Source: Planctomycetota bacterium (GTDB lineage Bacteria; Planctomycetota; UBA8108; UBA1146). From it: 64,000 nt of DNA. The notes below the pieces were generated by a model. It saw only the letters and a program-made list of their open reading frames with translations. It had not been told where the DNA came from and searched no databases. Shown piece after piece: positions 46,933-63,056 of this stretch; position 1 is the first letter of the stretch, and each line of letters starts with the position of its first letter. The stretch spans positions 108,192-172,191 of the forward strand of contig JABHOG010000015.1 of NCBI GenBank assembly GCA_018694835.1. Reading direction: 5' to 3'. The position numbers and the translations under genes are program-made.

Positions 46933-49746
46933 TCAGTTATAGAGCTTCTGCTCTTCAGCGCGCAGGTCGATAATCTTGGCAGTGATGAGGATGTAGAGAC
47001 TCCTCTTCTCGTTCAAGTAAGCCTTCCTCCGGAACAGATTCTTGAGGAGCGGAATGTTACCCAGAATCGGCACCTGTGACTTGTGGCTCATCTGATTCAG
47101 ACTTCGGAATCCGCCCAGCAATACAGACCCACCATCGGGAACTGTCACCGACGTGAACGCCTGCTGCAGCGAGATCTCGGGCAGATCGATTTCCACCAGG
47201 CTTGCCGCATTGTTGAGAGTTCCGAGACTGATGGTCACGGTAGAGATCACACCATTGATGAGACTGGCCAAAGTCGGACGCACATCGACGGTGATGTAAC
47301 GGCGATCGGCAGAGATCACCGGTCGCACATCCAGCACCACCCCGTCCTGGAAAGTATCGATCACCGGGTCAGCCACCTCGGAAACCACCAGTCCAGTACC
47401 TCCGGAAACCAGCTCGTAATCCTGAACATAGGAACGCTGAGTGATCACCGAAACGTGAACCCGCTGACCGTTGGAAGCGGTCACCTGAGGTGCAGTGACG
47501 ATTCGTGCCGCTCGCTGTTCCTGACTCGCACGGATGATGGCGTTGATCTGGAACGGATCGAGCCAGGTCACCTGCATCGACAAGCCACGCAAAGTGGCGT
47601 TGAGTCGATTACCACGTGCGGCTCCGACAAACCCGTCGAGGATGTGCTGCATTCGCCCAGCAGTTCGATCCTGCCCCATGATCAGTGCAGGATCGGTGGG
47701 ATCCCCTAGATTGTTGAATCCGATGTCTGAGCCACCGGTTCCAGAAGCATTCAGGTTGCCATATGCAGTACCAAAACCCTGTCCGGGAGGCTGCCCGAGG
47801 TTGCGAGAATCAACTCCGATATCCTCCAGGAAGTCCTCAACCATGTCGATAAAGCGTGCCTCAACCACGACAAAGACGTCGCTGTTGGCCCGCAAGTTCT
47901 CGAGGAAATCCATGATGGAAAGGTGCAATTCCCTGGTGGCTGTGACGAGGATCTGTCCCTTATGACCGCTGATGGTCGAACCGGACTCATCCCAGATATC
48001 TGTTCCACCGGTCGATTCCTGGATCAACTCGACCAGATCATCCGGAGTCAGTTCAGCATCTTCTTCCTCGTCGAATCCTCCGAAATCGAAGGGGTTACTA
48101 CCCCCTCCTTCTTCTCCACCATCGTTACTGGTGACCCGAATCGAAGGACCAGGGAAATCACGGATCTTGTTGAGGATATCGGTGACGTTGTAAATCTCGA
48201 AAATGAGGTTTCCGAAAGCGTTTTCCGGTTCCGTGATGAACAGAATGTTTTCACGGAAGGTGTACGCCTTTCCGGTCGACTTCATGATGAGGTCCAGCGC
48301 CTCTCCCAGTTTCACTCCTTCAAGTGAAAGATTCACCGGCACATCGGCGCCCTCGATCTCGTTATCGATCTGGATGTTGAGATCACTGACACTACGAAGG
48401 AAAGCCACTACCTCTGCGAGGTTGGCATCGGGGAAATCGAACGAGGTCGATCCGGAAGCCAGTGTTCTACGGATCTTGCGAATCTCCGGTGATTCCTCGA
48501 GGTTATTGGAGGAAAGCCCGCTCAGCCGCTGCTGCACTTCACCTTGCCAGAAATCACGTGAATCGGGAAAGCGGAACGGATCTTCGTAAGGGATCGCCGA
48601 TCGCTCGAGGTCTTCCCAAACGCGAGTCTCTTGCTCCTTGTTACGGGAGAGGTAATTGACATACCGATGAGATGCCATGTACTCCTGCGCTCGCTCCTGC
48701 AGTCGTCTGGCAGCCCCATTCTGAGGGTCAATCTGAAGAATCGTCTTGCACAGTTGCGAGGCCTCGCGGAAGTCCTCACGGACCATCGCGTCCTCGATCC
48801 TGTCCATCAGGGTGGAAATCCGCTCGATGCGACGTTTCTCCGCCTCAGAGGTCAGACGCTCCGCCTCGCGAATGGCAAACACTTCACGATCACGGCGATT
48901 GGTTTCTTCGCTGCTGATCTTCAGGTTTCGGGCACGGTCGTAGAGGGATTGTGCCTCCTCCTGCATGTCCGAGACATCGACCCCGTACTCGAACCAGATC
49001 AGTCTTTCTCTGGCTCGCTGCAGCAGATCGAGAGCTTCTTCAGTCCGATTCTCCTCCAGCGCAGTTTTACCCTCTGCCAGGAAGCGAGTCGCTTCGCTGA
49101 GACGCTGCTGCTCGAGAACCTTGACCTCTTCACCAAACTGCTGAAGCACCGTGAGGATCTCACCATCACGACGGCCCAGGAACATCAGGCAGCGTGCCAG
49201 ATTCTTCTTGGCTTCCTGCAGGCTCGGATCGCTATTCAGAGCTCTACGGTAAGCGCGCTCCGCAGCAGAGTAGTCCGCTTCTGCAAAGAAACGATCTGCC
49301 TGGCTCACCAACCACTGGGCAGTTTTGCGCCGCTCCTGTACCTCAAGCGAGATATCGTCAGCGATCTTTCCCACCGAATCATCAGCGTCTTGGCTCGCTG
49401 AAGATGTGCGAGAAGCGTCTTGGCTCGCTGAAGATGTGCGAGAGAAGAGATCCTGCTGGGAGTCGTCCGCAACAGCTCTAGGTGGCTCCAGCGCTACCTC
49501 AGTCGGCGCAGCCGCTCGAACCCCGTCAGAGCTTCCGCTGCAACCGGATAGCGATGTGACGAGGATTCCAGCGGACAGGAGTCCGCACAGAACCACTGCG
49601 AAATTTGTAAACGCACGTGAAATTGAAACACGTGTACTTGAAGCTTGGGTCTCGTTCACGAGAGCACCCTTTCTTTTTTCGCCAGCATCTTCTTGGTGAA
49701 GAAACAGACGAGCTCGACATTTAGCGATCAAATTACAGCACGGCAC
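46933..49746 (-). CDS. Secretin B (GspD/PilQ superfamily) with long helical TPR-like N-terminal region; probable lipoprotein
   Basis: C-terminal secretin core ...VTVPDGGSVLLGGFRSLNQMSHKSQVPILGNIPLLKNLFRRK...SLYILITAKII.... N0-like ...FDFPDANLAEVVAFLRSVSDLNIQID.... Lipobox ILVTSLSGC. The probable true start is the GTG at 49659. Confidence 0.85.
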   Translation of the reverse strand: MPCCNLIAKCRARLFLHQEDAGEKRKGALVNETQASSTRVSISRAFTNFAVVLCGLLSAGILVTSLSGCSGSSDGVRAAAPTEVALEPPRAVADDSQQDLFSRTSSASQDASRTSSASQDADDSVGKIADDISLEVQERRKTAQWLVSQADRFFAEADYSAAERAYRRALNSDPSLQEAKKNLARCLMFLGRRDGEILTVLQQFGEEVKVLEQQRLSEATRFLAEGKTALEENRTEEALDLLQRARERLIWFEYGVDVSDMQEEAQSLYDRARNLKISSEETNRRDREVFAIREAERLTSEAEKRRIERISTLMDRIEDAMVREDFREASQLCKTILQIDPQNGAARRLQERAQEYMASHRYVNYLSRNKEQETRVWEDLERSAIPYEDPFRFPDSRDFWQGEVQQRLSGLSSNNLEESPEIRKIRRTLASGSTSFDFPDANLAEVVAFLRSVSDLNIQIDNEIEGADVPVNLSLEGVKLGEALDLIMKSTGKAYTFRENILFITEPENAFGNLIFEIYNVTDILNKIRDFPGPSIRVTSNDGGEEGGGSNPFDFGGFDEEEDAELTPDDLVELIQESTGGTDIWDESGSTISGHKGQILVTATRELHLSIMDFLENLRANSDVFVVVEARFIDMVEDFLEDIGVDSRNLGQPPGQGFGTAYGNLNASGTGGSDIGFNNLGDPTDPALIMGQDRTAGRMQHILDGFVGAARGNRLNATLRGLSMQVTWLDPFQINAIIRASQEQRAARIVTAPQVTASNGQRVHVSVITQRSYVQDYELVSGGTGLVVSEVADPVIDTFQDGVVLDVRPVISADRRYITVDVRPTLASLINGVISTVTISLGTLNNAASLVEIDLPEISLQQAFTSVTVPDGGSVLLGGFRSLNQMSHKSQVPILGNIPLLKNLFRRKAYLNEKRSLYILITAKIIDLRAEEQKLYN
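49385..49444 (-). repeat. 30-nt tandem duplication inside secretin B
   Basis: gcgtcttggctcgctgaagatgtgcgaga(a/g) occurs twice back to back (29/30 identical), encoding SRTSSASQDA twice. Confidence 0.95.
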
Positions 49747-49779
49747 GAAAACAACCGTTTTAGTACCGACTCAAATTCT

Positions 49780-50292
49780 TCACTCCAGCGGAACTTCCGG
49801 CTGGGCAAAGGCGATGTTCACGATTTCTTGTCTGGCACAGATGTTCAAAACATCGATGACATACTTGTACGGTACTTCCTTGGCAAAGTCGATGACCACT
49901 GGCAAGGAGCCGTTGCCATCGAGTGGAACGTATCTCGATTTCATGCCGCTGATGTAATCCTCGATGAAGTTGAGGTCAGGACCAGCAACTCCGGTAAATT
50001 GCTCGTAATCCGATTCCAACTGCTCATTTAGCGGTACCTGGGACTGATCGGCCCAGGCGATCACTTGCCCCCCCTGGTTCATCAGGGTGATCCTGCACGT
50101 CTCTGACAGGATCGGGCGGCTATTAGATTCGCCACGATTTTTCGGTAAATAGGACCTCAGAGTGCCTTCAGGCATCTTGAATTTGGTCGCCAACATGAAG
50201 AAAATCAACAGGAGAAATACGACGTCGATCATCGATGTCATGTCGGTTTCCACTTCTCCGGGATCGCCTTTTGCTTTTTTACGTCGGGCCAT
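49780..50292 (-). CDS. exbD: ExbD/TolR-family protein (paralog 2)
   Basis: 170 aa, ...DMTSMIDVVFLLLIFFM... TM with the conserved Asp, followed by a periplasmic domain. Confidence 0.85.
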   Translation of the reverse strand: MARRKKAKGDPGEVETDMTSMIDVVFLLLIFFMLATKFKMPEGTLRSYLPKNRGESNSRPILSETCRITLMNQGGQVIAWADQSQVPLNEQLESDYEQFTGVAGPDLNFIEDYISGMKSRYVPLDGNGSLPVVIDFAKEVPYKYVIDVLNICARQEIVNIAFAQPEVPLE

Positions 50293-50343
50293 CGTATCTC
50301 CTTTCCATTCTCATCGTTCTTACCATTGGTTCCACCTCAGCCA

Positions 50344-50847
50344 TCAAGGCTGATCGGAGTAAGGATCTTCCAGTCTCTCGTTGATCGCAGAGCAACTGAC
50401 CTGATAGATCCCCGCTTTCTGACAAGCGCCAAAGATGCTGTGTATGTTTCCGGCATCGGCTCCCTGATCACAGCGAATCGTCACATGCAGAGTGGAAAGT
50501 TTTTTGCCTGATGGATTATTCGGGTTGTCCTCGAATTTCCCATGCGCAGCCACTTCCCCTTTCAGTTCGGTCTCCAGTTCTTTCGGAGTCAACGGCGATC
50601 CATTCATCAACTGAATGATCTGCTTGTTTTCCTTATCGAACGACACGTTCACCACCAAAATCACCTGATCTGGTTGTGGCTCCTCAACCTTCGCTTCATT
50701 CGCAACCGGCAAGATGACCACCGCCTGCTGGACCGACAACTCGGTCACTACCATGAAGAAAACGATGAGCAGGAACACGATGTCGATCATCGGGGTCATG
50801 TCCATTTCAACACCGTAGTCAGTTTTTTTGGCTCGCTTCGATGCCAT
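50344..50847 (-). CDS. exbD: ExbD/TolR-family protein (paralog 1)
   Basis: 167 aa, ...MDMTPMIDIVFLLIVFFMV.... Confidence 0.85.
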   Translation of the reverse strand: MASKRAKKTDYGVEMDMTPMIDIVFLLIVFFMVVTELSVQQAVVILPVANEAKVEEPQPDQVILVVNVSFDKENKQIIQLMNGSPLTPKELETELKGEVAAHGKFEDNPNNPSGKKLSTLHVTIRCDQGADAGNIHSIFGACQKAGIYQVSCSAINERLEDPYSDQP

Positions 50848-50869
50848 CTCTACTTCTCCAGCAATCTAT

Positions 50870-51604
50870 TCACTGAGCCTGGTGATCGTCGAACTGTTCC
50901 ATCAATTCTGTAGCCACGCTACTCACTTCAACTGCGGCAGCTTCAATTTTGGTCTTGAAGATGAAGTAAGCGACGGTCATAGGAATCGCCACGATGAGCC
51001 CCATCATCGTCGTCATCAGCGCTTGTGAAATCCCCTGCGCCAGGTCCTTTGGTTTCGGCGAAGTCTTACTCATGGCGATGACGTTGAACGCCGTCACCAT
51101 GCCGATCACGGTACCCAGTAGTCCGAGCATCGGAGAAATGGCCGCAATCAAGGAGATGAAACTGATCTTTCGGTGGAGATCCGCAGATTCAACTTCACCG
51201 GCTTCCTCCATCGCATCCTGAATCTCGTCATAGGGGCGGTCGATCTTGGGTAAACCTGCAGCCAGTACACTGGAAAAGTAACTGGGTTGCTGCTCACACG
51301 CATCGAGAGCCGACTCAAAATCGCCCGTTTCGAACAGCCCTTCCACATGACCGACCAGTTCCGGGGGTACCAGAACATCGCGGCGCATCTGGATGGCATT
51401 CATGATGATCAAGGTCACTCCCACAATCGAGAGCAATATCAGGATCACACCCACTGCTCCGGCAGCCTTGATGTTGTCCAGCACAGATACTGTCGTCGGC
51501 GCAACTTCCTGAGCATGTACTTCCTCAGTGAATGCGACGCCGAGTGTGATCAACAGTAGAGCCAGCACTGCAGTTCTTCCGCAGGTGGTACTCAACTTCT
51601 TCAT
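50870..51604 (-). CDS. exbB: MotA/TolQ/ExbB proton-channel protein with N-terminal signal-like segment
   Basis: ...ISLIAAISPMLGLLGTVIGMVTAF...GISQALMTTMMGLIVAIPM.... ATG at 51604 (MKKLSTT...) preceded by GAGAGGAA is preferred over the track start at 51637. Confidence 0.85.
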   Translation of the reverse strand: MKKLSTTCGRTAVLALLLITLGVAFTEEVHAQEVAPTTVSVLDNIKAAGAVGVILILLSIVGVTLIIMNAIQMRRDVLVPPELVGHVEGLFETGDFESALDACEQQPSYFSSVLAAGLPKIDRPYDEIQDAMEEAGEVESADLHRKISFISLIAAISPMLGLLGTVIGMVTAFNVIAMSKTSPKPKDLAQGISQALMTTMMGLIVAIPMTVAYFIFKTKIEAAAVEVSSVATELMEQFDDHQAQ

Positions 51605-51662
51605 CGTCTTGATTCCTCTCAACAGTCCCGGAAACACCGGGAAAACTGAATCGACAATTAAT

Positions 51663-52799
51663 CTAATGATTCCAAACAGAGTTTGGTGCCAACTTTTGTA
51701 ACCTCTGGGTCAATTCTTCGACTCTATCGTTCAATCCAAGTTCCTTGGCAGCGCTCTTGGCCCGAAACAACGATTCCGCGAGGATGTCACCATTGCCAGT
51801 GGTAGCGATCACCGCAGCCCTGAAGTAGCGAATCAGTGCCCATTGCAACTGAGTTCGATCGCCACCCGCCTGGCCATGACTGGCTCTTCCCCAGATCAAC
51901 CATGCCCTCGCTCTGGAAGCGGTTGTTGCTGTGGAATTTCGATCACGATTTTCCAGCACTTTTTGGCGAACAGTATCGGTCGCGGAAGACCATTGTTTCT
52001 GTCCCAACTGACAACTGGCATATCCTAGCCACGCAACGGTGCCCATCGAAGCCCCTGCCTGAGAATCGTTGGCGACCGCGGAGAACAGTTCACGAGCTTC
52101 GGTCCATTTTTCCTGGGCGAGCAACACCTCTGCCTTGCCCAGGGTCCCTCCCTGGATCCACTTCTTGCCCAGGTCTCCCTGGGCCAGTGGCTGGAGTGCC
52201 TGCAAGGCATCGGACCACTTCCCGGAACTCTTGTAGGCGGCCGACAGGCCCATCCGGGCGTACGGCACATAGAAGTCCTTTTTCGGCTCGTATGCTGCGA
52301 TGAAGGCATCAAAAGCACCAATCGCCGCAGTCAGTTTCGAGGAATCTTGCTGTCCCAGACGTAGTAGCGCCTCTGCCAGAAGATAACTGGCATTGGACCG
52401 ATGACGGTCGGCTCCCTGACTGCTGGCAGCTGTCAGAGCGCTCACCGCTCCTTCCAGATCTCCTTGCTCAAGCGCCCCACGCCCCCGGGAGAGATTAGCA
52501 GGCTCTCCGGAGAAGCGAAGTTCCAGCACCTTTTCGGAGGAGAGTTTCTGGGCAGTGCTGACCCCGGGTAACCGGTACTCGACCTGTTCCCAGGTAGCGG
52601 TCGAGATGGTGACCCCCTCGTAGTTCCTGCCTCCTGTGACGATGATTTCATCGGCACGAACAGAAGAGTGGCCCACCAGTCCACTGGTGAGTACGGCGAA
52701 TACGGTCAATATCCATCGACTCCACCCTTGAGCTGCGTGAGCGGTCAGAACGAGACTATTTTCTAATTTCATCAATTCGTCTTTCATCGTCACTGGCAA
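51663..52799 (-). CDS. Periplasmic TPR-like protein (378 aa)
   Basis: Signal/anchor WILTVFAVLTSGLVGHSSVRA followed by helical repeats (...YLLAEALLRLGQ..., ...GKAEVLLAQEKWTEARELF...). Tightly abuts or overlaps the upstream gene. Confidence 0.7.
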   Translation of the reverse strand: MPVTMKDELMKLENSLVLTAHAAQGWSRWILTVFAVLTSGLVGHSSVRADEIIVTGGRNYEGVTISTATWEQVEYRLPGVSTAQKLSSEKVLELRFSGEPANLSRGRGALEQGDLEGAVSALTAASSQGADRHRSNASYLLAEALLRLGQQDSSKLTAAIGAFDAFIAAYEPKKDFYVPYARMGLSAAYKSSGKWSDALQALQPLAQGDLGKKWIQGGTLGKAEVLLAQEKWTEARELFSAVANDSQAGASMGTVAWLGYASCQLGQKQWSSATDTVRQKVLENRDRNSTATTASRARAWLIWGRASHGQAGGDRTQLQWALIRYFRAAVIATTGNGDILAESLFRAKSAAKELGLNDRVEELTQRLQKLAPNSVWNH

Positions 52800-55645
52800 T
52801 CTTTTTCCAGTTGATCAAATCGTGGCTGAAGACTCTCGGGAGCGAACGCTGAAGTTTCCCCTCCAGCCTTCAATCTGCGACTGCCGATCAGTCCTATCAC
52901 CTGCTCGCACTGCTTTCTGGCCTTCATTACTTCCAGGTATTGAAGCCAGGTAGACCAGTAATCGCGCTCAAATAGTGGTGGAATTCCACCTCCAAAGAGC
53001 AACGACTGTCTCCTCTGATCCAGGATCGCCAGTGCCGATCGAAGATCATCCGACATCATCTCGAGGCGACTATCATCACGATCTGCTTCATACAGACCAC
53101 GATTCGCAGATGCTCGTTGAACCAGCACAAATGGAGCATCTGGATAGGCGCCGTTGTAGGTGTCATCGGCATATTTGTCGATCAGGTCATCGAGACTCGC
53201 GAGGGCGTCCCGATGCTTTCCAGCAGCGTTGGCTGCCTTGGCGAGGAAGTAAGCCACCCCGATATCAAGAACGGGATCACCTGCGCCCTTCGCATCGTTC
53301 TGTGCCTCTGCCAGCATCGTGGCCGCTTCGTTGGAAAACTTTGCATCGATCAGGATCGAGGCCAGGCCCAGTTTCACTGCTGGCGCTGCCTGGTCGAACT
53401 GGGAACCGGGCAACTGGATCCACTCCAGCACCAGTTCTCCCGCACGACGAGAATTCGCCACAGTTGACGAAACCTTGCAAGCCTCGATGAGGTAGTAGGT
53501 TCCGGCCACCAGGGAGTGTTCCGTCGACCAGTTCTTACGAATCTCAGTCAGGCTCTTCTCGGCCTCTACCAGTTGCCCTTCGGCACAGAGGATTTCGTGC
53601 AAGAGCAAGATCGCTCCCTCACGATAAACACTGCTTCCCGACAACTCCTCGAGCACTGGCTTGAGCGCCTCGATGGCGGAGGAGGGGTTCTTGCCCCGAT
53701 CACTCCAGTAGATACGACCCAATTCAAAGCGAAGAGAAGATTCTCCAGAGACATCGCGATCGCTGCGAGCATCCGCCAGCAGTGCTCGTATTTCACCGGC
53801 GGCATCACGAGTTCCCTGTTCCAAATCGGTACTCAATCGAAAGAGGCAACGTGCTCCCGCCGCTCGAGCTCGATAGAAAAACGGAACCGTCATTTCTCCC
53901 GCCCCATCGTCATACTTCGAGGCGATTCGACGGAACAGGTCACGTGCATTGCTGTATTCTCCTCGGTCCTCAGCCTCACTCGCTTGCTGCAGTTTTAACT
54001 GCTCGCTACCGAGGCCCTGGGAGTTGTCAGCAAAGAGTTTCTCAGCGACCGGAATCAGTTCAGCCCAAGCACCACCGCGGTCACTTCCCAGATCCCCAAC
54101 GATGGCAAAGAAGTTCTGGCTGGCCATCGCCACGATATCGCTCTCGGGGTATTGTTCGACCAACACCTGGTACGCGATGGCCGCTTCTTCGACACGGCCC
54201 AGGGCATCACAGGACTCGCCAATCTCGTAGAGGGCTTTCGCCTTCCATTGCCGAGAGATCTTGTCGTCATTACGACAGCCGAGCGCCCTCTTGGCTGATT
54301 CTGCCGCCTTCAGCGGCTGACCTCGGTCGCGAAATCCTGCAGCGGCACGAACATACAATTCGGGTGTCAAATTCCCGACATTCATCTCGAGCAGACGACT
54401 GATTCCGCGAGCCAGACGATCGAGAGTTTCACGAGTGGAGGAAGGGTCGGCCTTCCAGTTGTCCACCGTGTCGTAACTTTGAATCAGTTGCGCCATCAAG
54501 GACAGTCCAGTGCTTCGATCACCACCGGCGATTCGCGAGATCGCCTCCTCAACATCCAGCACCGCCACCAGTGGAGCGATTTCTGGATCTTCTGGAGTAC
54601 TGCGGTATGGAAAATTGGGGTCCACTTCCTCGTAGAGGTACTCGAGTAAATCGAGTGCTTCAGTGGCCATCGATGCTCGGTTGTATGCAGCCAGCGATCC
54701 CGCGAGGGATTCGACTCTCATACTGCGTATGAATCGGATGACTTCCGGGTCATAGGGAGGGTCTCCACTCGGCTCAATATCGACCAGCAGTTCCAGTTCA
54801 GCGGCGGCTTCCTGCGGGTGCCCTGAAGCCGCCAGAGCCTTACCGTAGATCAACTGTGCACGATAGCGCCGGGCGAAGTTATCGTATCGAAGGTCGACAA
54901 ATTGCTTGGAGAGAAGTGCCAGTTCGTCGAACAATGCCGACTTGGCCGCCGATTCGTCCGCCAACAATCCGCAGTACACCTGGATCGCCGACAGTTCCTG
55001 GAACTCCCAGAGATCTCGGATCTGCACCTTCTCCACCAGGGTTTGTGCCAGAGTTCGCTTACTCTCGGAGTCCTTCTCGGCAATCACCTTGGCCTGAATC
55101 AAATCCACATCCGAGTTCTGGATACGAATATTATCTTTCAGAATCCGTCGCACCTCGTCCTCCCAGAGTCGATCGCGTTTCTCGATGAAACGCTGTCGAT
55201 CGGAAGGGCTGGTGGCGAACACCGCCTCGGTATTGGCGTCACTGAGGCGCAGCATGGCAGCCAGTACGGCTTCCAGCTTCGCCCCCTTCGAGCGCATATG
55301 ATTGGGATACTTCTTGGCCAGAACTCGAATCGATTCTTCGTAGCCATCGATATCACCCTCGACTCGAGTCGCATCGGCGAGGTAGTACTCCAGGCTCGCT
55401 CGAGCAGAAGAACTCGCCGTTTTCTTGCGAGAGTCGATCCAGATCCGCGCCAGATCAGGGCTGTTGTAGGAGATGAGTAATTCGCGGAGCAGCGATTGCT
55501 CTTCAGAAGTGAGGTCACCACGCCCGAGGCTCTGTGCACCGACCGCGGACGTCGCTAGAAGCGACATTCCGATCGAAACACAAAGCAGTGCAATGCCTCG
55601 AAGGCGGCACTGCCCTGTTCGGTTACATGATTCCATCAATTCCAC
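52790..55645 (-). CDS. Large periplasmic all-helical TPR-like protein (951 aa)
   Basis: Signal peptide ...IALLCVSIGMSLLATSAVGAQS, then about 900 aa of helical-repeat-like sequence. No enzymatic motif seen. Confidence 0.7.
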   Translation of the reverse strand: MELMESCNRTGQCRLRGIALLCVSIGMSLLATSAVGAQSLGRGDLTSEEQSLLRELLISYNSPDLARIWIDSRKKTASSSARASLEYYLADATRVEGDIDGYEESIRVLAKKYPNHMRSKGAKLEAVLAAMLRLSDANTEAVFATSPSDRQRFIEKRDRLWEDEVRRILKDNIRIQNSDVDLIQAKVIAEKDSESKRTLAQTLVEKVQIRDLWEFQELSAIQVYCGLLADESAAKSALFDELALLSKQFVDLRYDNFARRYRAQLIYGKALAASGHPQEAAAELELLVDIEPSGDPPYDPEVIRFIRSMRVESLAGSLAAYNRASMATEALDLLEYLYEEVDPNFPYRSTPEDPEIAPLVAVLDVEEAISRIAGGDRSTGLSLMAQLIQSYDTVDNWKADPSSTRETLDRLARGISRLLEMNVGNLTPELYVRAAAGFRDRGQPLKAAESAKRALGCRNDDKISRQWKAKALYEIGESCDALGRVEEAAIAYQVLVEQYPESDIVAMASQNFFAIVGDLGSDRGGAWAELIPVAEKLFADNSQGLGSEQLKLQQASEAEDRGEYSNARDLFRRIASKYDDGAGEMTVPFFYRARAAGARCLFRLSTDLEQGTRDAAGEIRALLADARSDRDVSGESSLRFELGRIYWSDRGKNPSSAIEALKPVLEELSGSSVYREGAILLLHEILCAEGQLVEAEKSLTEIRKNWSTEHSLVAGTYYLIEACKVSSTVANSRRAGELVLEWIQLPGSQFDQAAPAVKLGLASILIDAKFSNEAATMLAEAQNDAKGAGDPVLDIGVAYFLAKAANAAGKHRDALASLDDLIDKYADDTYNGAYPDAPFVLVQRASANRGLYEADRDDSRLEMMSDDLRSALAILDQRRQSLLFGGGIPPLFERDYWSTWLQYLEVMKARKQCEQVIGLIGSRRLKAGGETSAFAPESLQPRFDQLEKDCQ

Positions 55646-55704
55646 TCCCGCCTCCCCGTCGCGGGCATCGACATCTCTGTCGTGCGATTTGTCACTCAGT
55701 AGGC

Positions 55705-58209
55705 TCAGTTAAACCTTTTGGACTCTTCGTCACGGATCACCGTGATTTTCGAACTGATGAGTACGAACAGGTTGGACTGCATCCGCGCCTGACCCTTTCG
55801 ACCCAACAGGAAATCGAGGAAGGGCAATCTCGAAATACTCGGGATCCCGACCTGTGCATCCTGCGTCACGGTTCGTTTGAGGCCACCGACCAGCACGGTT
55901 CCACCGTCCGGAATCGTCACGGTGGTCTTGATATTGGTGACCGACAACACCGGGAACTCGACCCTCAGATTGGTCAGCCCCAGGGTCAACACCTTGAAAC
56001 GAGATGGCAATTGCACCGCTAGCGTCGGCTCGATCTCCAGGATGACGTACTTCCGGTCATGACTGACGGTAGGACGAACCTGCAGGATGGAACCCGCATT
56101 GAGGATCCCGATGACGGGATTGATCACCGGAACCACTCCGGTCTGATTCACTTCTGCGTCCTCGATGTAGGCACTCTGGTCCACCACGAGAGAGTGGGAG
56201 ATCTGGGTATTGAATGCCGTCACCCGTGGCGCATTGAGCCGCCTGAACTGCTGCGACTTCTGGTTCGCCTCGAGGATGGCCTCGAGTGCGTAGGAATCGA
56301 GTACGTTGTACTGCAGGGCAAATCCACCACGATTACTGATCTCGAAGGGCGAGACGGAAGAACCCAGTGGAAGCGAAAATGCATTGTAAGCCGCGGCTCG
56401 CACATCGATCTCACCCTGTGCGTCGACGATTTCGAAACCGGAAGCGATTTGCGCACCCGCACCATCGGTGTCACTGATCGGGTTGGGCAGGTTGGAGTTG
56501 AAGGGGTTTCCGTAATCGACCCCAATCGATTCCAGGAAGTTGTCCTGGAGGTCGATGAAGCGGGCTTCCACGGTCACCATCACTCCGGTGGACTTACGCA
56601 ACGCGTCCAGCAGTTGGATCAACTTGCGATGGTTTTCCAGCGTCGTACGAGCGACCAGTTTTCCATTCTGATACTTGACGCTCTCCCCGTCCGGCTCACC
56701 CTCGTCGCCGAACAGTGCGGTGATCACCAGTTCGACCAGCAAGTCGCTGTCGAGAGTAGTTTCCTGGGTGTCTTCTTCTCCGCCGAGATCAAACAGCCCT
56801 CCTCCGCCTCCAGCATCTCCATCCTGGCTCGACTGAAGTGCCAGTTTTGGTGCTCTGAAATCGGGGTGGTCCTTGGTGATGTCGGAGACCTCATAGAATT
56901 CGAGGAACAGATCATTTCGCACCGAATCGGATGGACCGATGAGAACTGCTCCTGAACGGATGACGTAGGAGAAAGGCGGATCGTTCCCTGTAAGAACCAG
57001 CTTGAGAACGTTCTCCAGGGGAAGGTCCGTGACCTCGGCCAGGCGGACGAGACCGTCGCCACCTTCAATCGCATCGCGCGCTTCCTTGGTCAAAACGAAG
57101 TTAATTCCAGAGAGGTCAGATAGGAACTCCATCACCTGGCCAAACGGCTCATCCGGGAACTCAACGCTGGCGACCCGGACTCGCAACTTGCTCCGGATGC
57201 TTTTTTCCTGTGGGCTCTCGGTCGCTTGCAGTCTCGTTTCGAGCGACTGCTCCCGGCGCAGAATCCGGCTCCAGTCTTCTCGTGATGGGAAGTTAAAGAT
57301 CTCGGTGTAAGGGATCTCGGACTCGAGTTGAGAGATAAAGGTTCGGTCCCATTCCAACGATGTTTGCATTCCCGTATCGAGAACCTCGTACATGTGGCGC
57401 AAGTCCGCAGCTTCCCTGCGCAACGCTCGTACGTCTTGACGAGAAGGATCGAGATTCAGAACGGTATCGCAAAGATCGATCACCCCTTCGTAATCTCGTT
57501 CCGAAAAGAGTCGTCGAGCTTGACGCAGGACTTCTTCGATTCGATTCTGGATGAAAGACACGGAACGAGCCATCTCCGACTCCGCTTGGGAGAGGATCCG
57601 TATTTCTTGTTCGCGTCGAGCCGAAGCGACCGATTGCTGACGCAATTCCGTGGCTTCCTGTTTCGATTGCTTGGCTCGGTTTTGCAGATCACTGAGGTCG
57701 AAATCGAAGGGGAACCAGCGGATCCTCTCCAATACCTGATCAAAGATGTTGATCGCCTTATCAAAGTTGTCATCGTCCATCGCTCGGCGACCGTTGAGAT
57801 AAAGGCGGTCGAGTTCGAAAACGTCCTGCTGAAGGCGGACATTCTTCTCCTCCACCAATCGACGGCGCAGATCCTGGATATCACCACTACGATCGCCAAG
57901 GATCAGTAGCACTGTTTCCAGTTTTTGACGAGCATCTGCATTGCCCGGATCGAGGCGCACTGCTTCTTGCAACTTCTCCTCAGCCTCGACATACCGGAGT
58001 TCGTTCATCAACTTCTGAGCCGCCCCACTGGCGGACTGAGAAGCCTTCACGCGCTCCTGGCCATCGAGGGAGATATCGCGGATCAGTTCATCCACCTCGC
58101 CAGCCTGGAAGGCGTGGACGGGACTCGCCGTTTGGCAAACGAGCAGCAAAAGGTACGCGAAGAGCAGCACACTGATTCGCGCAAAGGATGCTCGTAAGAT
58201 ATTCGTCAT
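55705..58209 (-). CDS. Secretin A (GspD/PilQ superfamily) with helical TPR-like N-terminal region
   Basis: Signal peptide ...LLLLVCQTASPVHA. N0-like ...VEFPDEPFGQVMEFLSDLSGINFVL.... Secretin core ...VTIPDGGTVLVGGLKRTVTQDAQVGIPSISRLPFLDFLLGRK...NLFVLISSKI.... Confidence 0.85.
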   Translation of the reverse strand: MTNILRASFARISVLLFAYLLLLVCQTASPVHAFQAGEVDELIRDISLDGQERVKASQSASGAAQKLMNELRYVEAEEKLQEAVRLDPGNADARQKLETVLLILGDRSGDIQDLRRRLVEEKNVRLQQDVFELDRLYLNGRRAMDDDNFDKAINIFDQVLERIRWFPFDFDLSDLQNRAKQSKQEATELRQQSVASARREQEIRILSQAESEMARSVSFIQNRIEEVLRQARRLFSERDYEGVIDLCDTVLNLDPSRQDVRALRREAADLRHMYEVLDTGMQTSLEWDRTFISQLESEIPYTEIFNFPSREDWSRILRREQSLETRLQATESPQEKSIRSKLRVRVASVEFPDEPFGQVMEFLSDLSGINFVLTKEARDAIEGGDGLVRLAEVTDLPLENVLKLVLTGNDPPFSYVIRSGAVLIGPSDSVRNDLFLEFYEVSDITKDHPDFRAPKLALQSSQDGDAGGGGGLFDLGGEEDTQETTLDSDLLVELVITALFGDEGEPDGESVKYQNGKLVARTTLENHRKLIQLLDALRKSTGVMVTVEARFIDLQDNFLESIGVDYGNPFNSNLPNPISDTDGAGAQIASGFEIVDAQGEIDVRAAAYNAFSLPLGSSVSPFEISNRGGFALQYNVLDSYALEAILEANQKSQQFRRLNAPRVTAFNTQISHSLVVDQSAYIEDAEVNQTGVVPVINPVIGILNAGSILQVRPTVSHDRKYVILEIEPTLAVQLPSRFKVLTLGLTNLRVEFPVLSVTNIKTTVTIPDGGTVLVGGLKRTVTQDAQVGIPSISRLPFLDFLLGRKGQARMQSNLFVLISSKITVIRDEESKRFN

Positions 58210-58520
58210 CGATCTCTCCTTGCTTCACACGGTCAATTTTCGGTCCCCGGATCGAAGGAGCCCCACAGGGGAGTTCCCGTTTCGCCGAGGTGCATCCAGA
58301 GACCGGCGGTTCCGATCTCGTAATTTCTCTCTGATCTCTTTCTGATCAGGGTCTCCGAAGAGGATTCTTCAGATCTCCTGTCAGCCACCCGAGATCGCAT
58401 CCGACGATCCCGGTCACAGTCAAAGTCGCTCGCTGTCAAATTCGCTATCGCTACGAAACTTTAAACATGTAATCTTCTCACCGAACATGCCGCTGCGCGT
58501 GTCCATGATCGGCTCTTTGA

Positions 58521-59627
58521 TCAATCGTCACCACCGCCGAAGAGACCGCCACCGCCACTGGGTCGTGGACGTGCGGGTTTGGCCGGTGGGGCTTCGACGG
58601 AATCGTCCTCTATAGCATCTGCTGAGGTTTCATCACCCATCGGTTCGTCCGCTGGATCCGCATCGGTATTGACCCAATCACTGGGATCGAGCCGCTGCGG
58701 GTCACCATTGTTCTTGAGATACATCCGCTTCCCCGCAGAGTTCTTGAGAACGACGGTTCGCCCATCTGCGGTGTCCTGGATTCGCTCGAGGCGATATCCC
58801 GTGCCAAACAGTTCAGCACCAGCCGTTCCCTGTGGACTCTCGGTGATGATTTTGGTATTTCGCTTGGTTTCGCCAGAGGCCCAGTCCCAAACGGTATTTT
58901 GAACCGTCACACGCCCTGGGACAAAGTTTCCTCCACCATCCAATTTTCCGATCTGAGCACCACTGACGCGCCAGATCGCATTGGCCGGATAAAGGACAGA
59001 AGCGCTGGGTCCTGAAGTGACCACGTCGGTTCCACTGGCGAAGGGAACAGAACTGGTCGAGCGAGCTCGCATGGTGATGCGATAACTATAGGACTTGCCC
59101 GTCTCCAATCCCGAGTCGAACTCCGCAACAAAGTCTGCGCCGGTCTGGACCGAGGAAAAGGTCGAGACCTTGGACCACTCCGATCCCCCCTCGCTCATCT
59201 CTAGATTGCAAGAAACCACGTCGGCTCGCTCAAAGATGCCATGACGTCCGCTGACCCTGTGCAAGGTCGACTTGCTACTTCCTTCACGAATCACTTCCAC
59301 CTTGGCAATCCAGCCTGGAGCCAGTTCTGGTGGAAGGATCACAGCAGTTCGGAACAGTTCCAATCGAGCAGGACGGCGATAGAAGACCCACTCCGGAATC
59401 TTCGTTTCCCCCTGGAAGGAGAAGGCCTTCTTGACCTCATTTTCGACTTCAGGAGCAGCCTGATTTCCGACCGATTGTTGCGCCTGAGTGCTTTGGATCT
59501 TCCCTGTGGCATTGGTGATCGCATCGGAGATTTCGGCCCCCTGATCGCCAATGAATGCCGAAGAAGCGAATCCAACCAGCAGTAAAACCACCGCAGCACC
59601 GATGGCAATCTTGTCGATGTTTTGCAC
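58521..59627 (-). CDS. Bitopic hypothetical protein in the PilP position
   Basis: GTG start. N-terminal TM IAIGAAVVLLLVGFASSAF, beta-rich periplasmic part and an acidic/Gly tail. Assigned by position only. Confidence 0.55.
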   Translation of the reverse strand: MQNIDKIAIGAAVVLLLVGFASSAFIGDQGAEISDAITNATGKIQSTQAQQSVGNQAAPEVENEVKKAFSFQGETKIPEWVFYRRPARLELFRTAVILPPELAPGWIAKVEVIREGSSKSTLHRVSGRHGIFERADVVSCNLEMSEGGSEWSKVSTFSSVQTGADFVAEFDSGLETGKSYSYRITMRARSTSSVPFASGTDVVTSGPSASVLYPANAIWRVSGAQIGKLDGGGNFVPGRVTVQNTVWDWASGETKRNTKIITESPQGTAGAELFGTGYRLERIQDTADGRTVVLKNSAGKRMYLKNNGDPQRLDPSDWVNTDADPADEPMGDETSADAIEDDSVEAPPAKPARPRPSGGGGLFGGGDD

Positions 59628-59641
59628 TTATTGCCTCGTTC

Positions 59642-60466
59642 CTACTGACTGCCCGCGGCAACAACGCCGGCGGGCACATTCATTTCAAGGAGTACCCAGA
59701 CGACAGGTTCAGAAGCGAGCCCATCGGCTCCTTCTTCCACTTCCTCCACCACCTCGTAAATCAGTCCCTCTCTGGTCTTCGCCAGAGAGAACTTTTGGAT
59801 TTCGAAGTCGACATAAGTATGGCGCAGCAATCCGTCGATTAATCCACCGACGCTTGCCGGCGGCAACTTGGCCAGGAAGGAGATAGGGATCCCGCCCTCG
59901 CTCTTCTCCTTGGAACTGGACTTTTTGCGTTGCTGATTGATCTTCAGCCCATCGTCAGCGATGGACGCTCCCCGGATGGCGAGGACCCGATCGACAAGGT
60001 CCTTCTGAATCCGCCACACTCGCTCGTAACTCTGCAGTTGGTCGGGGTCGGCGAGGTTGTCCTGAATCTTGAACGGGAAATCCTTGGTCTCCCCCGCATA
60101 TCCAGTGTGATGGACATAACGACTCACCAGCAAACCAAAACTGTCACGGTATCGAGTGGACCAGGAACTCAAATCTCCGACCGCGCCCTCGGTGAAGAGG
60201 TTCGCTCGATTGATGTGAAACTGTTCCGCTTTGGCGATTTGTTTGTCCCAGTTGAGAAGGAAGTCTCTCTTTGCTTCTACCAGTTCCGAGGTGGGTAGAT
60301 CGTCCGGGCTCATCTTCGCGTACTTCTCGATATCCCTTTTGGAACTCTTCAACTTCTTGGTTACAGATTCGTACTCAGTCATCTTTGGCATCACGAACAG
60401 GGCAAAAAGTATCACCCAGCCGACCAAGATGACCCCGAGTAGTGACCAGAAAACCTTGTCGTTCAT
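59642..60466 (-). CDS. Bitopic coiled-coil protein in the PilO position
   Basis: N-terminal TM FWSLLGVILVGWVILFALFV, then a predicted coiled coil and an alpha/beta domain. Topology and position resemble PilO. No motif-level proof. Confidence 0.55.
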   Translation of the reverse strand: MNDKVFWSLLGVILVGWVILFALFVMPKMTEYESVTKKLKSSKRDIEKYAKMSPDDLPTSELVEAKRDFLLNWDKQIAKAEQFHINRANLFTEGAVGDLSSWSTRYRDSFGLLVSRYVHHTGYAGETKDFPFKIQDNLADPDQLQSYERVWRIQKDLVDRVLAIRGASIADDGLKINQQRKKSSSKEKSEGGIPISFLAKLPPASVGGLIDGLLRHTYVDFEIQKFSLAKTREGLIYEVVEEVEEGADGLASEPVVWVLLEMNVPAGVVAAGSQ

Positions 60467-60475
60467 CTTGCCCCC

Positions 60476-62359
60476 CTATTCATTCTCAGTTTCGGAATCG
60501 ATGTCGATCCCTGGAAGGGGTGGATGAATCCAACGGATTTTCCACGGATAGAGGTTGGTACCATGATTGAGTGTCGCATCGGTCTTGGTTCCTCGTCCGC
60601 CTCCGACCTTGATCCCCTCGGACTTCAAGAACATCAGCATCGTTTCGGCAAGAACCGTTCTCTCGACTCTCGCGGTTCCAGCGTCCGCCTCACCAAAGAG
60701 TTCGGTCAATCGCTTCTCGATGGGAGCGACGATCAACTGATTCAACTTCTCGTCATTGGATGCGGCATTTCCCGCATCGTAGCGGAAGCCATGGACGACC
60801 ACCTCGTAACGGTCCTCAAAGACCCGAACACCGCTATCTTTACCTGAACTGGCTTTTTCGAGCACCACTCCATCCGCAGTGACCACGATCTTGCGGATAT
60901 CGAGTCCCGCCAGCCAGGTCTTCTGTCCATTGAGGATCTCCTGGTCCGCTTCGATATTGCGCAGAACACTATCCTTCTCAGGACCGTCTTCCGCCCTCTT
61001 CGACAGGACATTGGCACCCAGTTCGGCGGGAACCACCGATCCAACGATGCCGAGGATTTCGCGTGGCATCAGCCGTCCAGTTCCTCTCGCCAGCAAAACG
61101 CCCTGTTTGGTCAACATCTCCTTCGAGTCGTCGCCAGTCAGCTCGTCGAGCCGATCCTCATTCTTCTTCAGTTCCTTGACGATCCCCGCCTTGGAGAGAA
61201 CCGCCTCTGCATCTCGGATCTTTCCTCCGAAATTCAGACTGAAGAACAGGATCAAGATGTAAAGGCTCGCTGCTGCGACCAGCACTTTCTTCTTCTTCTT
61301 CTGGAACTCGACCGCTTCCCGCTTCTCCTGGGGGAGCAGGTTCAAGTCGACTTCCGCCAGACCAAGTCCCTGAAGAGCACCGCCGATGGCAGTGCAATAG
61401 GTTGCCGTCTCCTGCTGAATTCCAGAAGGTAGGGCATCGGTCCCGATTCTCACTCTTGCCAGGTTCTTGGTCAGTTGGACACGGATTCGAAGATTCTCTT
61501 CAAGAAACTTCCGCAGACCTACCAACTTTGAACTGCCGCCAAACAGGAACAGATCTTCGATCTTGATCTCTCCCACTCTGGACTTGAAGTAACCGATGGA
61601 ACGGTTGATCTCACTGACAAGATCACGCAGCAGAGGTTGAACCTCTTTGAAGATCTTTGCCGCATGCTCCGATTGAGCCGCAGTCACCTTGAGGTTCTCG
61701 GCCTCCTGTTCGGAGCACCCAAATTTATCCTGCAATGCTTGTGTGAAGTCTTTGCCGGCAATCGGTAAGGAACGGAACCAAAAACGGGAACCGTTGACGA
61801 TAATCAAGTCGGTGTGATCGGACCCGATCTCCAAAGCGACGATCGGTCGAGTCGGGCGCAGGTCGAAACGAATCAGGTTCAGCAGACCCACGTTACCCAG
61901 GGTCAGCACGTCCACTTCCAACTCGTCCTGGGAGTAATCGACCAGCAGATCAGAAATCTCTTCCGATCGAACTGCAAAGATTCCTACTTCTTTTTCACCA
62001 TCCTCGGTATCGCCACTGACATGGCTTCCCCAGATCACTTCATCGATCGGTAATGGGATGTTCTGTTGCGCCTCGTATCCGATCAACTCGTCCAGTTTCT
62101 TGCCCGCCACCGGCGGGATCGGAATGAAACTGGTCAATGCGGAGCGACTTGGCAACGTCACGACGAGCGCACCTGAAAGATCATACTGTGCAGCCAGCGC
62201 AGAAACCGCTGCAGCAGAGGAATCGACCTCGGAACCACCTGGATTATCGATCTTTGCGGCGGCGACAACTTCCGCACCATTTCCAGATCGCTGAAGTTTC
62301 ACCGCCTTGAGGGACGTGCGTCCCGCATCGATGCACCAAACTTCATCAAAGTCGGACAT
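60476..62359 (-). CDS. pilM: PilM-like actin-fold ATPase fused to a PilN-like TM/periplasmic region
   Basis: ...VWCIDAGRTSLKAVKL..., ...IVALEIGSDHTDLIIV..., ...LFLFGGSSKLVGLRKFLEENL... (ASKHA fold, PilM-like). Then KKKKKVLVAAASLYILILFFSLNFGG TM and a 260-aa periplasmic part. GAGAGAGG lies upstream of the ATG. Confidence 0.8.
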   Translation of the reverse strand: MSDFDEVWCIDAGRTSLKAVKLQRSGNGAEVVAAAKIDNPGGSEVDSSAAAVSALAAQYDLSGALVVTLPSRSALTSFIPIPPVAGKKLDELIGYEAQQNIPLPIDEVIWGSHVSGDTEDGEKEVGIFAVRSEEISDLLVDYSQDELEVDVLTLGNVGLLNLIRFDLRPTRPIVALEIGSDHTDLIIVNGSRFWFRSLPIAGKDFTQALQDKFGCSEQEAENLKVTAAQSEHAAKIFKEVQPLLRDLVSEINRSIGYFKSRVGEIKIEDLFLFGGSSKLVGLRKFLEENLRIRVQLTKNLARVRIGTDALPSGIQQETATYCTAIGGALQGLGLAEVDLNLLPQEKREAVEFQKKKKKVLVAAASLYILILFFSLNFGGKIRDAEAVLSKAGIVKELKKNEDRLDELTGDDSKEMLTKQGVLLARGTGRLMPREILGIVGSVVPAELGANVLSKRAEDGPEKDSVLRNIEADQEILNGQKTWLAGLDIRKIVVTADGVVLEKASSGKDSGVRVFEDRYEVVVHGFRYDAGNAASNDEKLNQLIVAPIEKRLTELFGEADAGTARVERTVLAETMLMFLKSEGIKVGGGRGTKTDATLNHGTNLYPWKIRWIHPPLPGIDIDSETENE

Positions 62360-63056
62360 GAATACCTCTCTCTAACGATGGGCAAACACCGTTACGCCTT
62401 CACAGCATGCAATCACGGTCAAACAAACAATGCCCCGCAGTGATCTGCCGATCCAAAAGGAGCGTCAGATCACAGGGCTGCAACTCTGCGCACATCCAAA
62501 GTTCTGGTCACGCCAGGAACTAATTGCGCATAGTTTCCGTTCCCCCGTAGGGATCACAGAGTTAGAGGAACCCAACAGTCGCTGCTCCATCTGCAAGATC
62601 GATTCGCTTCACTACTGACCGCTTTGAAATCAGTTACCCATCGCTCGGATCTTGTAGAACCGTCGACACGCTTCGCCAGAAAGGACCGATATCGATCCAC
62701 TCCGGACGATCCAATTTCAGCGCAGTCATCGAACGAATAACTCGCCACGATGTCCACAACCCCTGTCGGACGGAGGTTGCCCTCCGCATCGCTCCGTGCC
62801 TGTAGGGTTCCGTTCCCGATGCCAGCATGAGCCTTGTTCGAAGGCCTACTGGAGGGTTCGGTCCCGAGTCACGGGGCGCATTCCTTCCCTGATCACGGCT
62901 CACGTCTGAACTCCACTGCCGCATCAATTCTGGGCCGATGGCCACGGCAGCGGGAGATCGAAACGGTCCCCGGGAAAACGGAGTATAGATCCCTGAGGGA
63001 GTGAGTCAACTTGCCTCAGGATATGGAGTTGACCCCTCAGAGTGACGGTCGAAGTT

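Follow-up and report, generated by a model that had tools for sequence, protein, structure and literature searches.

Results

A planctomycete gene cluster that joins two secretins to an ExbBD-type stator

A 64,000-nucleotide stretch of DNA from an uncultured marine Planctomycetota bacterium (GenBank assembly GCA_018694835.1, contig JABHOG010000015.1, positions 108,192 to 172,191 of the forward strand; hereafter the window) contains ten co-directional minus-strand open reading frames (ORFs), g1 to g10, at window positions 46933-62359, in which the genes for two tetratricopeptide repeat (TPR) proteins and an ExbB-ExbD-ExbD stator lie between those for two paralogous secretins. Judging from sequence comparisons, we favor, with about even confidence, the interpretation that g1-g10 encode a single secretin machine energized by the proton-motive force (PMF), the stator of which would be coupled through the TPR proteins. 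This reading is preferred because no transducer of the TonB or TolA type was found, the TPR proteins travel with the stator, and the block lies between paralogous secretins in many species. Secretins are usually seen as passive channels in the outer membrane, with cytoplasmic ATPases serving them. A dedicated PMF stator in such a system, if true, would be a new way of energizing secretins.

The layout of g1-g10 is operon-like, with short gaps save one, a promoter-like site upstream and a strong hairpin downstream (Table 1). From g1 to g10 the genes are separated by 9, 14, 311 and 59 nt, a 10-nt overlap, and 25, 22, 51 and 33 nt. A preliminary description of this DNA had counted eleven genes; the sequence and that description's own list both give ten, while its coordinates, strand and gap sizes matched the ORFs recomputed from the sequence. 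It had also placed a hairpin terminator after the last gene, and folding against shuffled sequences showed that this structure (~46847-46884) is real: the 114-nt terminator region folded at -52 kcal/mol (z = -5.3) and none of 200 shuffles folded equally well. Terminator-like matches inside the cluster were at chance level (17 found versus 15.2 expected). The promoter match was the sole one on the minus strand between 45.5 and 63.2 kb; it follows the sigma-70 consensus, which may not be that of the planctomycete host.

Table 1. Positions of cluster genes, motifs, signals and associated genes. Positions refer to the window except in the last row, where they refer to the locus named.
Feature	Position	Strand	Description
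g1, 627 aa	60476..62359	-	PilM-type actin-fold domain (10-330), transmembrane (TM) helix (~357-379) and 250-aa periplasmic domain
g2, 274 aa	59642..60466	-	Bitopic: N-terminal TM helix, long coiled-coil, alpha/beta core
g3, 368 aa	58521..59627	-	Bitopic: TM helix, disordered linker, two beta-sandwich domains, acidic disordered tail
g4, secretin A, 834 aa	55705..58209	-	Signal peptide, ~300-aa helical/TPR region, N0 (STN-like), N-domain, secretin domain
g5, 951 aa	52790..55645	-	Secreted TPR/helical-repeat protein; first gene of five-gene block
g6, 378 aa	51663..52799	-	Secreted; small N-terminal beta-rich region and TPRs (BamD/YfiO/CpoB-type)
g7, 255 aa	50870..51637	-	ExbB/TolQ-type proton-channel subunit; signal-peptide-like N-terminus, three TM helices
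g8, 167 aa	50344..50847	-	ExbD/TolR paralogue 1; Asp in TM helix (TPMIDIVF)
g9, 170 aa	49780..50292	-	ExbD/TolR paralogue 2; Asp in TM helix (SMIDVVF)
g10, secretin B, 937 aa	46933..49746	-	Full-length paralogue of g4; lipobox LSGC
Gly-rich motif GGGGLFDLGGEED	56770-56811	-	Secretin A N-domain loop; motif search
Gly-rich motif GGGGLFGGGDD	58524-58556	-	g3 C-terminus; motif search
Sigma-70-like promoter match TTGACT-16-TATACT	62982..63009	-	~620 nt upstream of g1
Terminator-like GC-rich hairpin and U-rich tract	46847..46884	-	3' of secretin B (g10); folding
HAD-type hydrolase (TIGR02253 family)	46090..46821	-	NCBIfam 181.7 bits vs 169.75-bit cut-off
Sulfatase-family lipoprotein, other loci	L055 7537-9300; L077 10316-12166; L063 10327-12243; L070 10533-12374; L074 10445-12325		

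A motor block without a recognizable transducer

Profile searches with Pfam confirmed the PilM domain, the two secretins, ExbB, the two ExbD proteins and the TPR proteins that the preliminary description had proposed. For the stator, the matches of g7 to MotA_ExbB (1.2e-30, 106 bits) and of g8 and g9 to ExbD (3.2e-19, 70 bits, and 2.8e-17, 63 bits) were all over the family cut-offs, which bears out the assignment of one ExbB and two ExbD paralogues. The best NCBIfam match of g7 was TolQ (4.7e-22; 79 bits against a 221-bit cut-off), and g8 matched TolR (8.7e-12; 46 bits against a 127-bit cut-off). Among structures in the PDB, g7 matched ExbB (7ajq/6ye4, 5e-13) and TolQ (8odt, 6e-9), and g8 matched ExbD (7ajq_F). 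The two ExbD paralogues resemble each other only over the first 45 residues, which comprise the TM region, and their periplasmic domains are unrelated in sequence.

Both g5 and g6 carry TPRs, as had been described, although the term giant that had been applied to the pair suits g5 alone. The g5 protein matched Pfam TPR_6 (4e-13) and further TPR families and has a signal-peptide-like N-terminus. The g6 protein matched TPR_19 (5e-11) and, weakly, the NCBIfam models for YbgF and BamD; its family could be aligned across 13 distant loci, and the distant members match Pfam YfiO. As read, the N-termini of g5 and g6 are signal-peptidase-I-type signal peptides with no lipobox.

No TonB_C, TolA or vWA domain was detected in the unassigned parts of the cluster proteins even at E<=5, and the TM helices of g1-g3 lack the His found in the SHLS motif of TonB/TolA. 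Together with the structural model of g3 (below), these searches yielded no TonB_C or TolA domain in any of the unassigned cluster ORFs. The cluster and the 30 window ORFs that were scanned, which lie mainly at 8-64 kb (several at 1-8 kb and 20.8-25 kb were outside the scan), contained no TonB_C, TolA, vWA, pilin, PilB/PilT/PilC or TonB-dependent receptor, and no TolB or Pal. Within that set, the earlier statement that the cluster is accompanied by no pilin, ATPase, TonB/TolA partner or TonB-dependent receptor holds. An 851-aa ORF at 18305-20860 gave a CarboxypepD_reg-like match at sub-threshold level only. Speth et al. reported TonB and TonB-dependent receptors in only four of the planctomycete genomes under study (PMC3422733); as most Planctomycetes are reported to be without either, the cluster motor would need a partner other than TonB.

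Two paralogous secretins with TPR-rich N-termini

Pfam identified secretin domains in both g4 (6.9e-18, with TPR_2) and g10 (4.1e-26, with TPR_19), and reading of the N-terminus of g10 agreed with the proposed LSGC lipobox; the true start codon of g10 is probably downstream of the annotated GTG. The two proteins are 29% identical across 850 residues (E 6e-105) and share a common build, with a helical/TPR region in the N-terminal third (detected by Pfam) followed by N0, the N-domain and the secretin domain. Their best PDB matches were PilQ (for g10, 9sh1 at 3.7e-11), and their N-termini are TPR-rich and not of the AMIN type. The NCBIfam models MshL, PilQ (TIGR02515), GspD and Amuc_1098_fam all matched g4 under their cut-offs, the first three far under; against Amuc_1098_fam, g4 and g10 scored 75 and 117 bits versus a 750-bit cut-off. 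The N0/STN domain that had been assumed for these secretins was sub-threshold in the window's own proteins (E 0.04-0.19, with g4 at 0.19) and gained a stronger, precomputed Pfam STN match on the orthologue in loci L002/L003.

The N-domain of secretin A contains a Gly-rich acidic loop, and most of the family sequences inspected have such a loop at the equivalent position; the loop of secretin B is similar (GGGSNPFDFGGFDEEED). The tail of g3 terminates in GGGLFGGDD, a sequence that does not vary among 23 orthologues. When the motif GG..LF..GG..D/E was searched in the six-frame translation of the window, just two sites were found, one in the secretin A loop and one at the g3 C-terminus. The common motif may represent a shared docking site or peptide.

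The stator lies between two secretin genes in many planctomycete species

A secretin-A alignment was used to scan a single genome from each species, and the 80 loci obtained were annotated by phmmer with the window proteins. The complete arrangement, secretin...ExbB-ExbD-ExbD...secretin, was present at 29 of the 80 loci, and a further 20 showed one secretin and the ExbB block before the sequence ended, which is compatible with it; two secretins with no ExbB detected were found at 4 loci, a single secretin, mostly on short contigs, at 23, and no full-length secretin at 4, all of these counts describing the constancy of the surroundings of such secretins and not how many planctomycetes carry the arrangement. 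The recurring order is secretin, ~1000-aa TPR protein, ~380-aa TPR protein, ExbB, ExbD, ExbD, secretin and a haloacid dehalogenase (HAD)-type hydrolase. Gene-neighborhood analysis had been proposed as a check on whether the stator stays between two secretin genes together with both TPR genes, and it does so in many Planctomycetota species.

Secretin A orthologues with 55-94% identity all came from uncultured Planctomycetota metagenome-assembled genomes (MAGs), many of them marine. Taken with those of the species scan, the orthologues spanned 55-98% identity. At 67% secretin identity (L002/L003), the entire ten-gene order and both flanks were kept. The order was also kept at 26-30% secretin identity, in L077 (labeled Phycisphaera mikurensis), L063 (Isosphaeraceae), L070, L078, L080 and L086. 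In the distant loci, a ~950-1000-aa TPR protein and a ~350-400-aa BamD/YfiO-type TPR protein are encoded from the first secretin to ExbB. L082 (labeled Phycisphaeraceae) is one of the four two-secretin loci without detected ExbB.

Several variations accompany this order. In several distant lineages (Table 1), a gene for a sulfatase-family lipoprotein of ~600 aa separates the second ExbD gene from the second secretin gene, and the lipoprotein of L077 also bears TPRs. Three ExbD paralogues rather than two follow ExbB in L028 (9066-10244), L035 (18383-19528) and L062 (8968-10185). Among the TPR-secretin relatives found, the one most remote in sequence (24% identity; L085, 1343-4785) adjoins a TPR protein and a 322-aa protein with the prepilin N-methylation motif PF07963, which shows a link to pilin-like proteins for some members of the secretin family. 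MAG records labeled Bacillota, Proteobacteria and Ca. Kuenenia stuttgartiensis also contained clear cluster orthologues (L017, L031 and L070), and these labels are probably taxonomic mislabels or binning errors; the Kuenenia label of L070 is doubtful because its ORFs are rich in Arg and Ala, suggesting a GC-rich genome.

The TPR-stator block is absent as a unit from some loci

At L033 and L001/L034, secretin B directly follows secretin A, with gaps of 128 and 11 nt, and the usual upstream genes (PilM-type, g2 and g3) and downstream genes (HAD onward) are all kept. What is absent from L033 (JBJXGE01) and L034 (JAKEFC01) is exactly TPR-TPR-ExbB-ExbD-ExbD, so these five genes behave as a separable module. 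The secretin A proteins of the two loci are 57% identical, and the loci are not nearest relatives of one another; the nearest relative of L033 is L040, where the block is present, and lineages more distant than L033 and L034 also carry all five genes. The simplest reading is that the block was lost or relocated independently at least two times. That it is missing as a unit in two non-sister genomes suggests that the TPR proteins are tied evolutionarily to the stator.

The front genes encode a proposed PilM/PilO-type platform

The N-terminal domain of g1 matched Pfam PilM_2 (1.6e-25; 90 bits against a cut-off of 27) and PilM in the PDB (2ych, 9e-22), and scored 114.5 bits against TIGR01175 pilM, under its 133-bit cut-off. 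Its best NCBIfam family was Amuc_1101_fam (6.5e-51; 174 bits against a 650-bit cut-off). The topology is that of GspL or of a fused PilM and PilN-like protein, and a weak NCBIfam match to GspL was obtained (E 0.005). The protein had been described as PilM fused to a PilN-like part. The PilM domain, the TM helix and the periplasmic part stand; no sequence similarity to PilN or PilO was detected, as the 250 periplasmic residues had no Pfam match at E<=5 and profile-profile comparison (hhalign) of the g1 and g2 families gave a probability of 0.5%, that is, no similarity. PilN-like is thus a statement of topology only, and the label was dropped for the g1 C-terminus.

Searches with the g2 and g3 sequences (Pfam, NCBIfam and PDB) gave no matches, and for these two proteins we used AlphaFold2 models, which were built on 23 and 12 sequences. 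The g2 model, with a predicted local distance difference test (pLDDT) score of 64, combines a TM helix and long helices with an alpha/beta core. Its best 11 Foldseek matches in the PDB were PilO (3jc8_Oa, probability 0.96) and Amuc_1100 (6lad, 6kny, 6laf), with probabilities of 0.93-1.0 and E-values of 3e-3 to 4e-2; Pseudomonas PilO (2rjz) was lower at 0.89, with the E range extending to 0.13. The placement of this 274-aa protein in the PilO position agrees with these matches, and with moderate confidence we assign g2 a predicted PilO/Amuc_1100-like fold. The model of g3, with core pLDDT >90, shows two tandem FN3/Ig-like beta-sandwiches, and Foldseek returned weak FN3-type matches only, with no TonB_C, PilP or GspC among the 50 best listed. 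The anchor of g3 is a TM helix and there is no lipobox; in none of these tests did the 368-aa protein show the PilP-like identity that had been suggested for it. We also considered g3 as a TonB-like protein on account of its TM anchor and Pro/acid-rich tail, and rejected this on the grounds of the beta-sandwich model and the lack of a TonB_C signal.

Relationship to characterized envelope systems

The front of the cluster resembles the Akkermansia Amuc_1098-1102 cluster, whose products are abundant in the envelope fraction and have been called 'pili-like' (PMC5332112). Locus-tag numbers and product descriptions give the same order in Akkermansia: a PilM-like protein with an extension (Amuc_1101), the small envelope proteins Amuc_1100 and Amuc_1099, and the secretin Amuc_1098. 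Correspondingly, g1 matches Amuc_1101_fam, both secretins match Amuc_1098_fam and the g2 model matches Amuc_1100 crystal structures. Scores for g1, g4 and g10 are all far under the equivalog cut-offs, however, so these proteins are not members of Amuc_1101_fam or Amuc_1098_fam, and the Akkermansia cluster as published has one secretin and no TPR-ExbB-ExbD block. We consider g1-g4 related to Akkermansia Amuc_1101-1098, as a version of the PilM-N-O-P-Q / GspL-M-C-D scaffold typical of the Planctomycetes-Verrucomicrobia-Chlamydiae (PVC) superphylum, and the cluster thereby makes Akkermansia Amuc_1100 and Amuc_1098 part of a broader family of PilM/PilO/secretin machines in the PVC group.

Likeness to the type IV pilus (T4P) alignment complex lies in the PilM domain, the PilO-like fold of g2, the bitopic third protein and the N0/N-domain secretin, and the fusion of PilM to a membrane span in g1 resembles GspL of the type II secretion system (T2SS). 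The planctomycete cluster differs from both in having no recognizable PilN or PilP, in secretins that bear TPR regions instead of AMIN, in the second secretin and in the PMF stator inside the operon; neither the cluster nor the scanned ORFs contained a pilin, a platform protein or an ATPase.

The motor block has its own set of relatives. ExbBD/TolQR-type motors with two TolR paralogues and TPR partners are known to serve non-TonB outputs (PMC3169522, PMC12204202), and the cluster adds a TonB-less case to such motors with non-canonical outputs. With the TonB and Tol-Pal systems it shares the Pfam stator families, the Asp in each ExbD TM helix and the closest structures (ExbB/ExbD and TolQ/TolR), but it has two ExbD paralogues instead of one, no TonB, TolA, TolB, Pal or TonB-dependent receptor was found, and the matches to CpoB (YbgF) are weak TPR matches only. 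In the same superphylum, the PVC 'TPR-tolQ-tolR-tolR-vWA' clusters end with the gene for a vWA protein of the inner membrane that has a TonB/TolA-type SHLS/His motif in its TM helix (PMC12204202, Mol Biol Evol 2025). The genes g6-g7-g8-g9 reproduce the TPR gene, the tolQ-like gene and the two divergent tolR-like genes of those clusters, but the planctomycete block is followed by a secretin (in some lineages by the sulfatase-family lipoprotein and then a secretin), and it has no vWA protein and no His-bearing TM helix; the paper on the vWA clusters makes no mention of secretins (PMC12204202). The Agl-Glt core of Myxococcus gliding motility (AglR-AglQ-AglS with GltD, GltE, GltG and GltC) comprises an AglR-type TolQ, two TolR-type subunits, ~1000-aa and ~400-aa secreted TPR proteins and the TonB-like GltG, and works on a complex that spans the envelope, not on TonB-dependent receptors (PMC3169522). 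In g5-g9 the same classes of part recur, one TolQ-type, two TolR-type and two TPR proteins, a likeness by class that extends to the Nfs sporulation complex. The planctomycete cluster lacks a TonB-like GltG/GltJ protein, g5 and g6 had no match to NF033758 gliding_GltE at E<=0.01, and where Agl-Glt has small beta-barrels in the outer membrane (GltA/B/H) the cluster has secretins. Within the open-access and bioRxiv literature on Planctomycetes we found no description of this architecture.

Proposed mechanism and alternative explanations

Under the single-machine interpretation, the ten genes would form a single operon, and the secretin machine encoded by it would span the envelope, be specific to Planctomycetota and have its own PMF motor. 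The inner-membrane platform would consist of g1 (PilM-type domain, TM helix and periplasmic part), g2 (PilO/Amuc_1100 fold) and g3 at the PilP/GspC position, and the outer-membrane part of the two paralogous secretins, each with its long helical/TPR N-terminal region. By analogy with the solved ExbB5-ExbD2 and TolQ5-TolR2 complexes, g7-g9 could assemble into a 5:2 stator with a heterodimeric ExbD pair, the periplasmic domains of which would act on the TPR scaffolds and these in turn on the TPR/N0 regions of the secretins. As a result, the secretin channels might be opened, assembled or anchored in a PMF-dependent manner to let a fiber or macromolecule pass. Coupling via the TPR proteins appears the most likely route because no TonB/TolA-like transducer was found and the TPR proteins are gained and lost with the stator. 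A role of the TPR proteins as pilotins was considered and rejected as the main reading, as they have no lipoboxes and co-vary with the stator and not with the secretins.

Several observations weigh against this interpretation. It is from gene order only that we infer the coupling of ExbBD to the secretins and TPR proteins, and the loci from which the order was counted were recruited through the secretin itself. L033 and L034 indicate that no stator need be encoded nearby for the secretins to persist; either the secretins function there in its absence, or the block has moved elsewhere in the genome. At least two loci with ~9-10 kb of downstream sequence, L045 and L052, show a PilM-type gene and a secretin and no ExbB, so there are simpler paralogous clusters, like that of Akkermansia. 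An internal promoter or attenuator could lie in the 311 nt that precede secretin A. For g2, the model is of moderate confidence and the Foldseek E-values are weak. In Planctopirus limnophila, three pilQ-like genes (Plim_0794, Plim_3284/3281 and Plim_3688), which may or may not be orthologues of the cluster secretins, were deleted without lethality and with no phenotype reported (PMC11958385).

One alternative, which we consider unlikely but deserving of serious attention, is that two independent systems share the operon. In that case a T4P/T2SS-like scaffold (g1-g4, perhaps together with g10 as an additional or spare secretin) would stand beside a reduced Tol-like system, in which TolQ, two TolR and CpoB/BamD-like TPR proteins stabilize or constrict the outer membrane and leave the secretins untouched. 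The preference of g7 and g8 for TolQ and TolR over ExbB and ExbD among NCBIfam models, and the weak matches to YbgF/CpoB and BamD in g5 and g6, point this way; every NCBIfam Tol match is far under its curated cut-off, however, and TolA, TolB and Pal are missing from the cluster and the scanned window ORFs. The clean absence of the five-gene block from L033 and L034 with both secretins kept, and the existence of motorless PilM-secretin clusters (L045, L052 and Akkermansia Amuc_1098-1102), are as expected of separable systems, but if an unrelated system had inserted between two paralogous secretin genes, one would not expect its order and orientation to be kept down to 26-30% secretin identity. 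Operons of the pilMNOPQ type normally lie apart from pilin and ATPase genes; the lack of a pilin or ATPase in the cluster is therefore weak evidence, and g1-g4 would call for no extra explanation.

The part list can also be read as that of a surface machine like Agl-Glt or Nfs, in which the motor, together with the large TPR proteins, would drive the movement or assembly of a polymer at the surface (such as a coat of polysaccharide, a holdfast or a fiber), the secretins would be its outer-membrane conduit and the downstream genes for HAD, family 2 and family 4 glycosyltransferases (GT2 and GT4) and a TPR protein would supply the glycan. We give this little credence. The core matches (one TolQ, two TolR, and ~1000-aa and ~400-aa secreted TPR proteins; PMC3169522), in most lineages a HAD gene comes after the second secretin, and an ArnC-like GT2, a GT4 and an 898-aa TPR protein come next in the window and in L001. 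Yet the likeness goes no further than domain classes, and TPR proteins are ubiquitous; neither g5 nor g6 matches the GltE model at the threshold given above, a GltG-type TonB-like protein is missing, and a strong hairpin parts secretin B from the HAD gene. It is highly improbable that the TPR proteins are mere assembly factors of the secretins, pilotins or chaperones, with the motor genes as irrelevant passengers. Some known secretin pilotins, such as PilF/PilW, Tgl and TadD, are indeed TPR lipoproteins, and the 898-aa downstream TPR protein weakly matches PilW; g5 and g6, unlike known pilotins, carry signal-peptidase-I-type signals without a lipobox, and they are lost with ExbB/ExbD while the secretins stay, the opposite of what an obligatory pilotin would do.

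Although most are reported to lack TonB and its receptors (PMC3422733), Planctomycetota take up large polymers, and their outer membranes have pits (PMC5394234, PMC11131199). A more specific proposal, which we regard as a long shot, is that the cluster underlies the structure and energetics of the crateriform pits and their fibers as a PMF-driven secretin gate, which would import or extrude polysaccharide, protein or DNA across the outer membrane, its stator acting via the TPR proteins directly on the secretins. If true, this would be a new energy-coupling mode for the secretin superfamily. The planctomycete cell-biology paper of Boedeker et al. makes no mention of secretin, PilQ, ExbB, TonB, type IV or TolQ. 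A widely conserved, motor-bearing two-secretin operon would offer a genetically testable candidate for planctomycete macromolecule uptake or pits, and for Planctopirus limnophila both genetic tools and strains deleted for pilQ-like genes are available (PMC11958385).

Cluster borders and neighboring genes

Upstream of g1, ~700 nt of non-coding sequence (62360-63056) separate it from the uracil-DNA glycosylase (UDG) gene, with no Rfam match; an Rfam scan of the window returned two tRNAs only, both distant from the cluster. A 103-aa ORF in this region (62634-62945) was considered as a gene and rejected: it is rich in Arg and Trp, does not resemble a pilin and found no counterpart at any locus, which suggests a long non-coding 5' leader upstream of g1. 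When the 311-nt gap 5' of secretin A (58210-58520) was aligned in ten relatives, the conserved part was the ribosome-binding region AAGCAAGGAGAGATCG only; the remainder is variable and rich in short GC hairpins, and the alignment revealed no clear RNA element or small gene.

The genes around the cluster are housekeeping genes for aminoacyl-tRNA synthetases, ribosomal protein L13, FloA/NfeD and UDG, with a glycosylation set directly downstream. Beyond the strong hairpin that stands between secretin B and the HAD gene, this conserved minus-strand set (39010-46821) encodes the HAD-type hydrolase, an ArnC-like GT2 of the polyprenyl-phosphate sugar transferase type, a GT4, the 898-aa TPR protein and a 763-aa protein with a weak match to major facilitator superfamily/spermidine-synthase-like proteins. 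The same set is present in L001 (7536-14468), and its composition suggests a lipid-linked periplasmic glycosylation pathway. The position of the HAD gene after the second secretin is kept in distant lineages too (for example L055, L056, L058, L068-L070, L075, L078 and L080). Elsewhere in the window, a Ser/Thr protein kinase of ~1200 aa is encoded on the minus strand at 14582-18196; a kinase of similar size adjoins a distant TPR-secretin in L004 (2999-6442), along with PP2C and VWA proteins, which may be coincidence.

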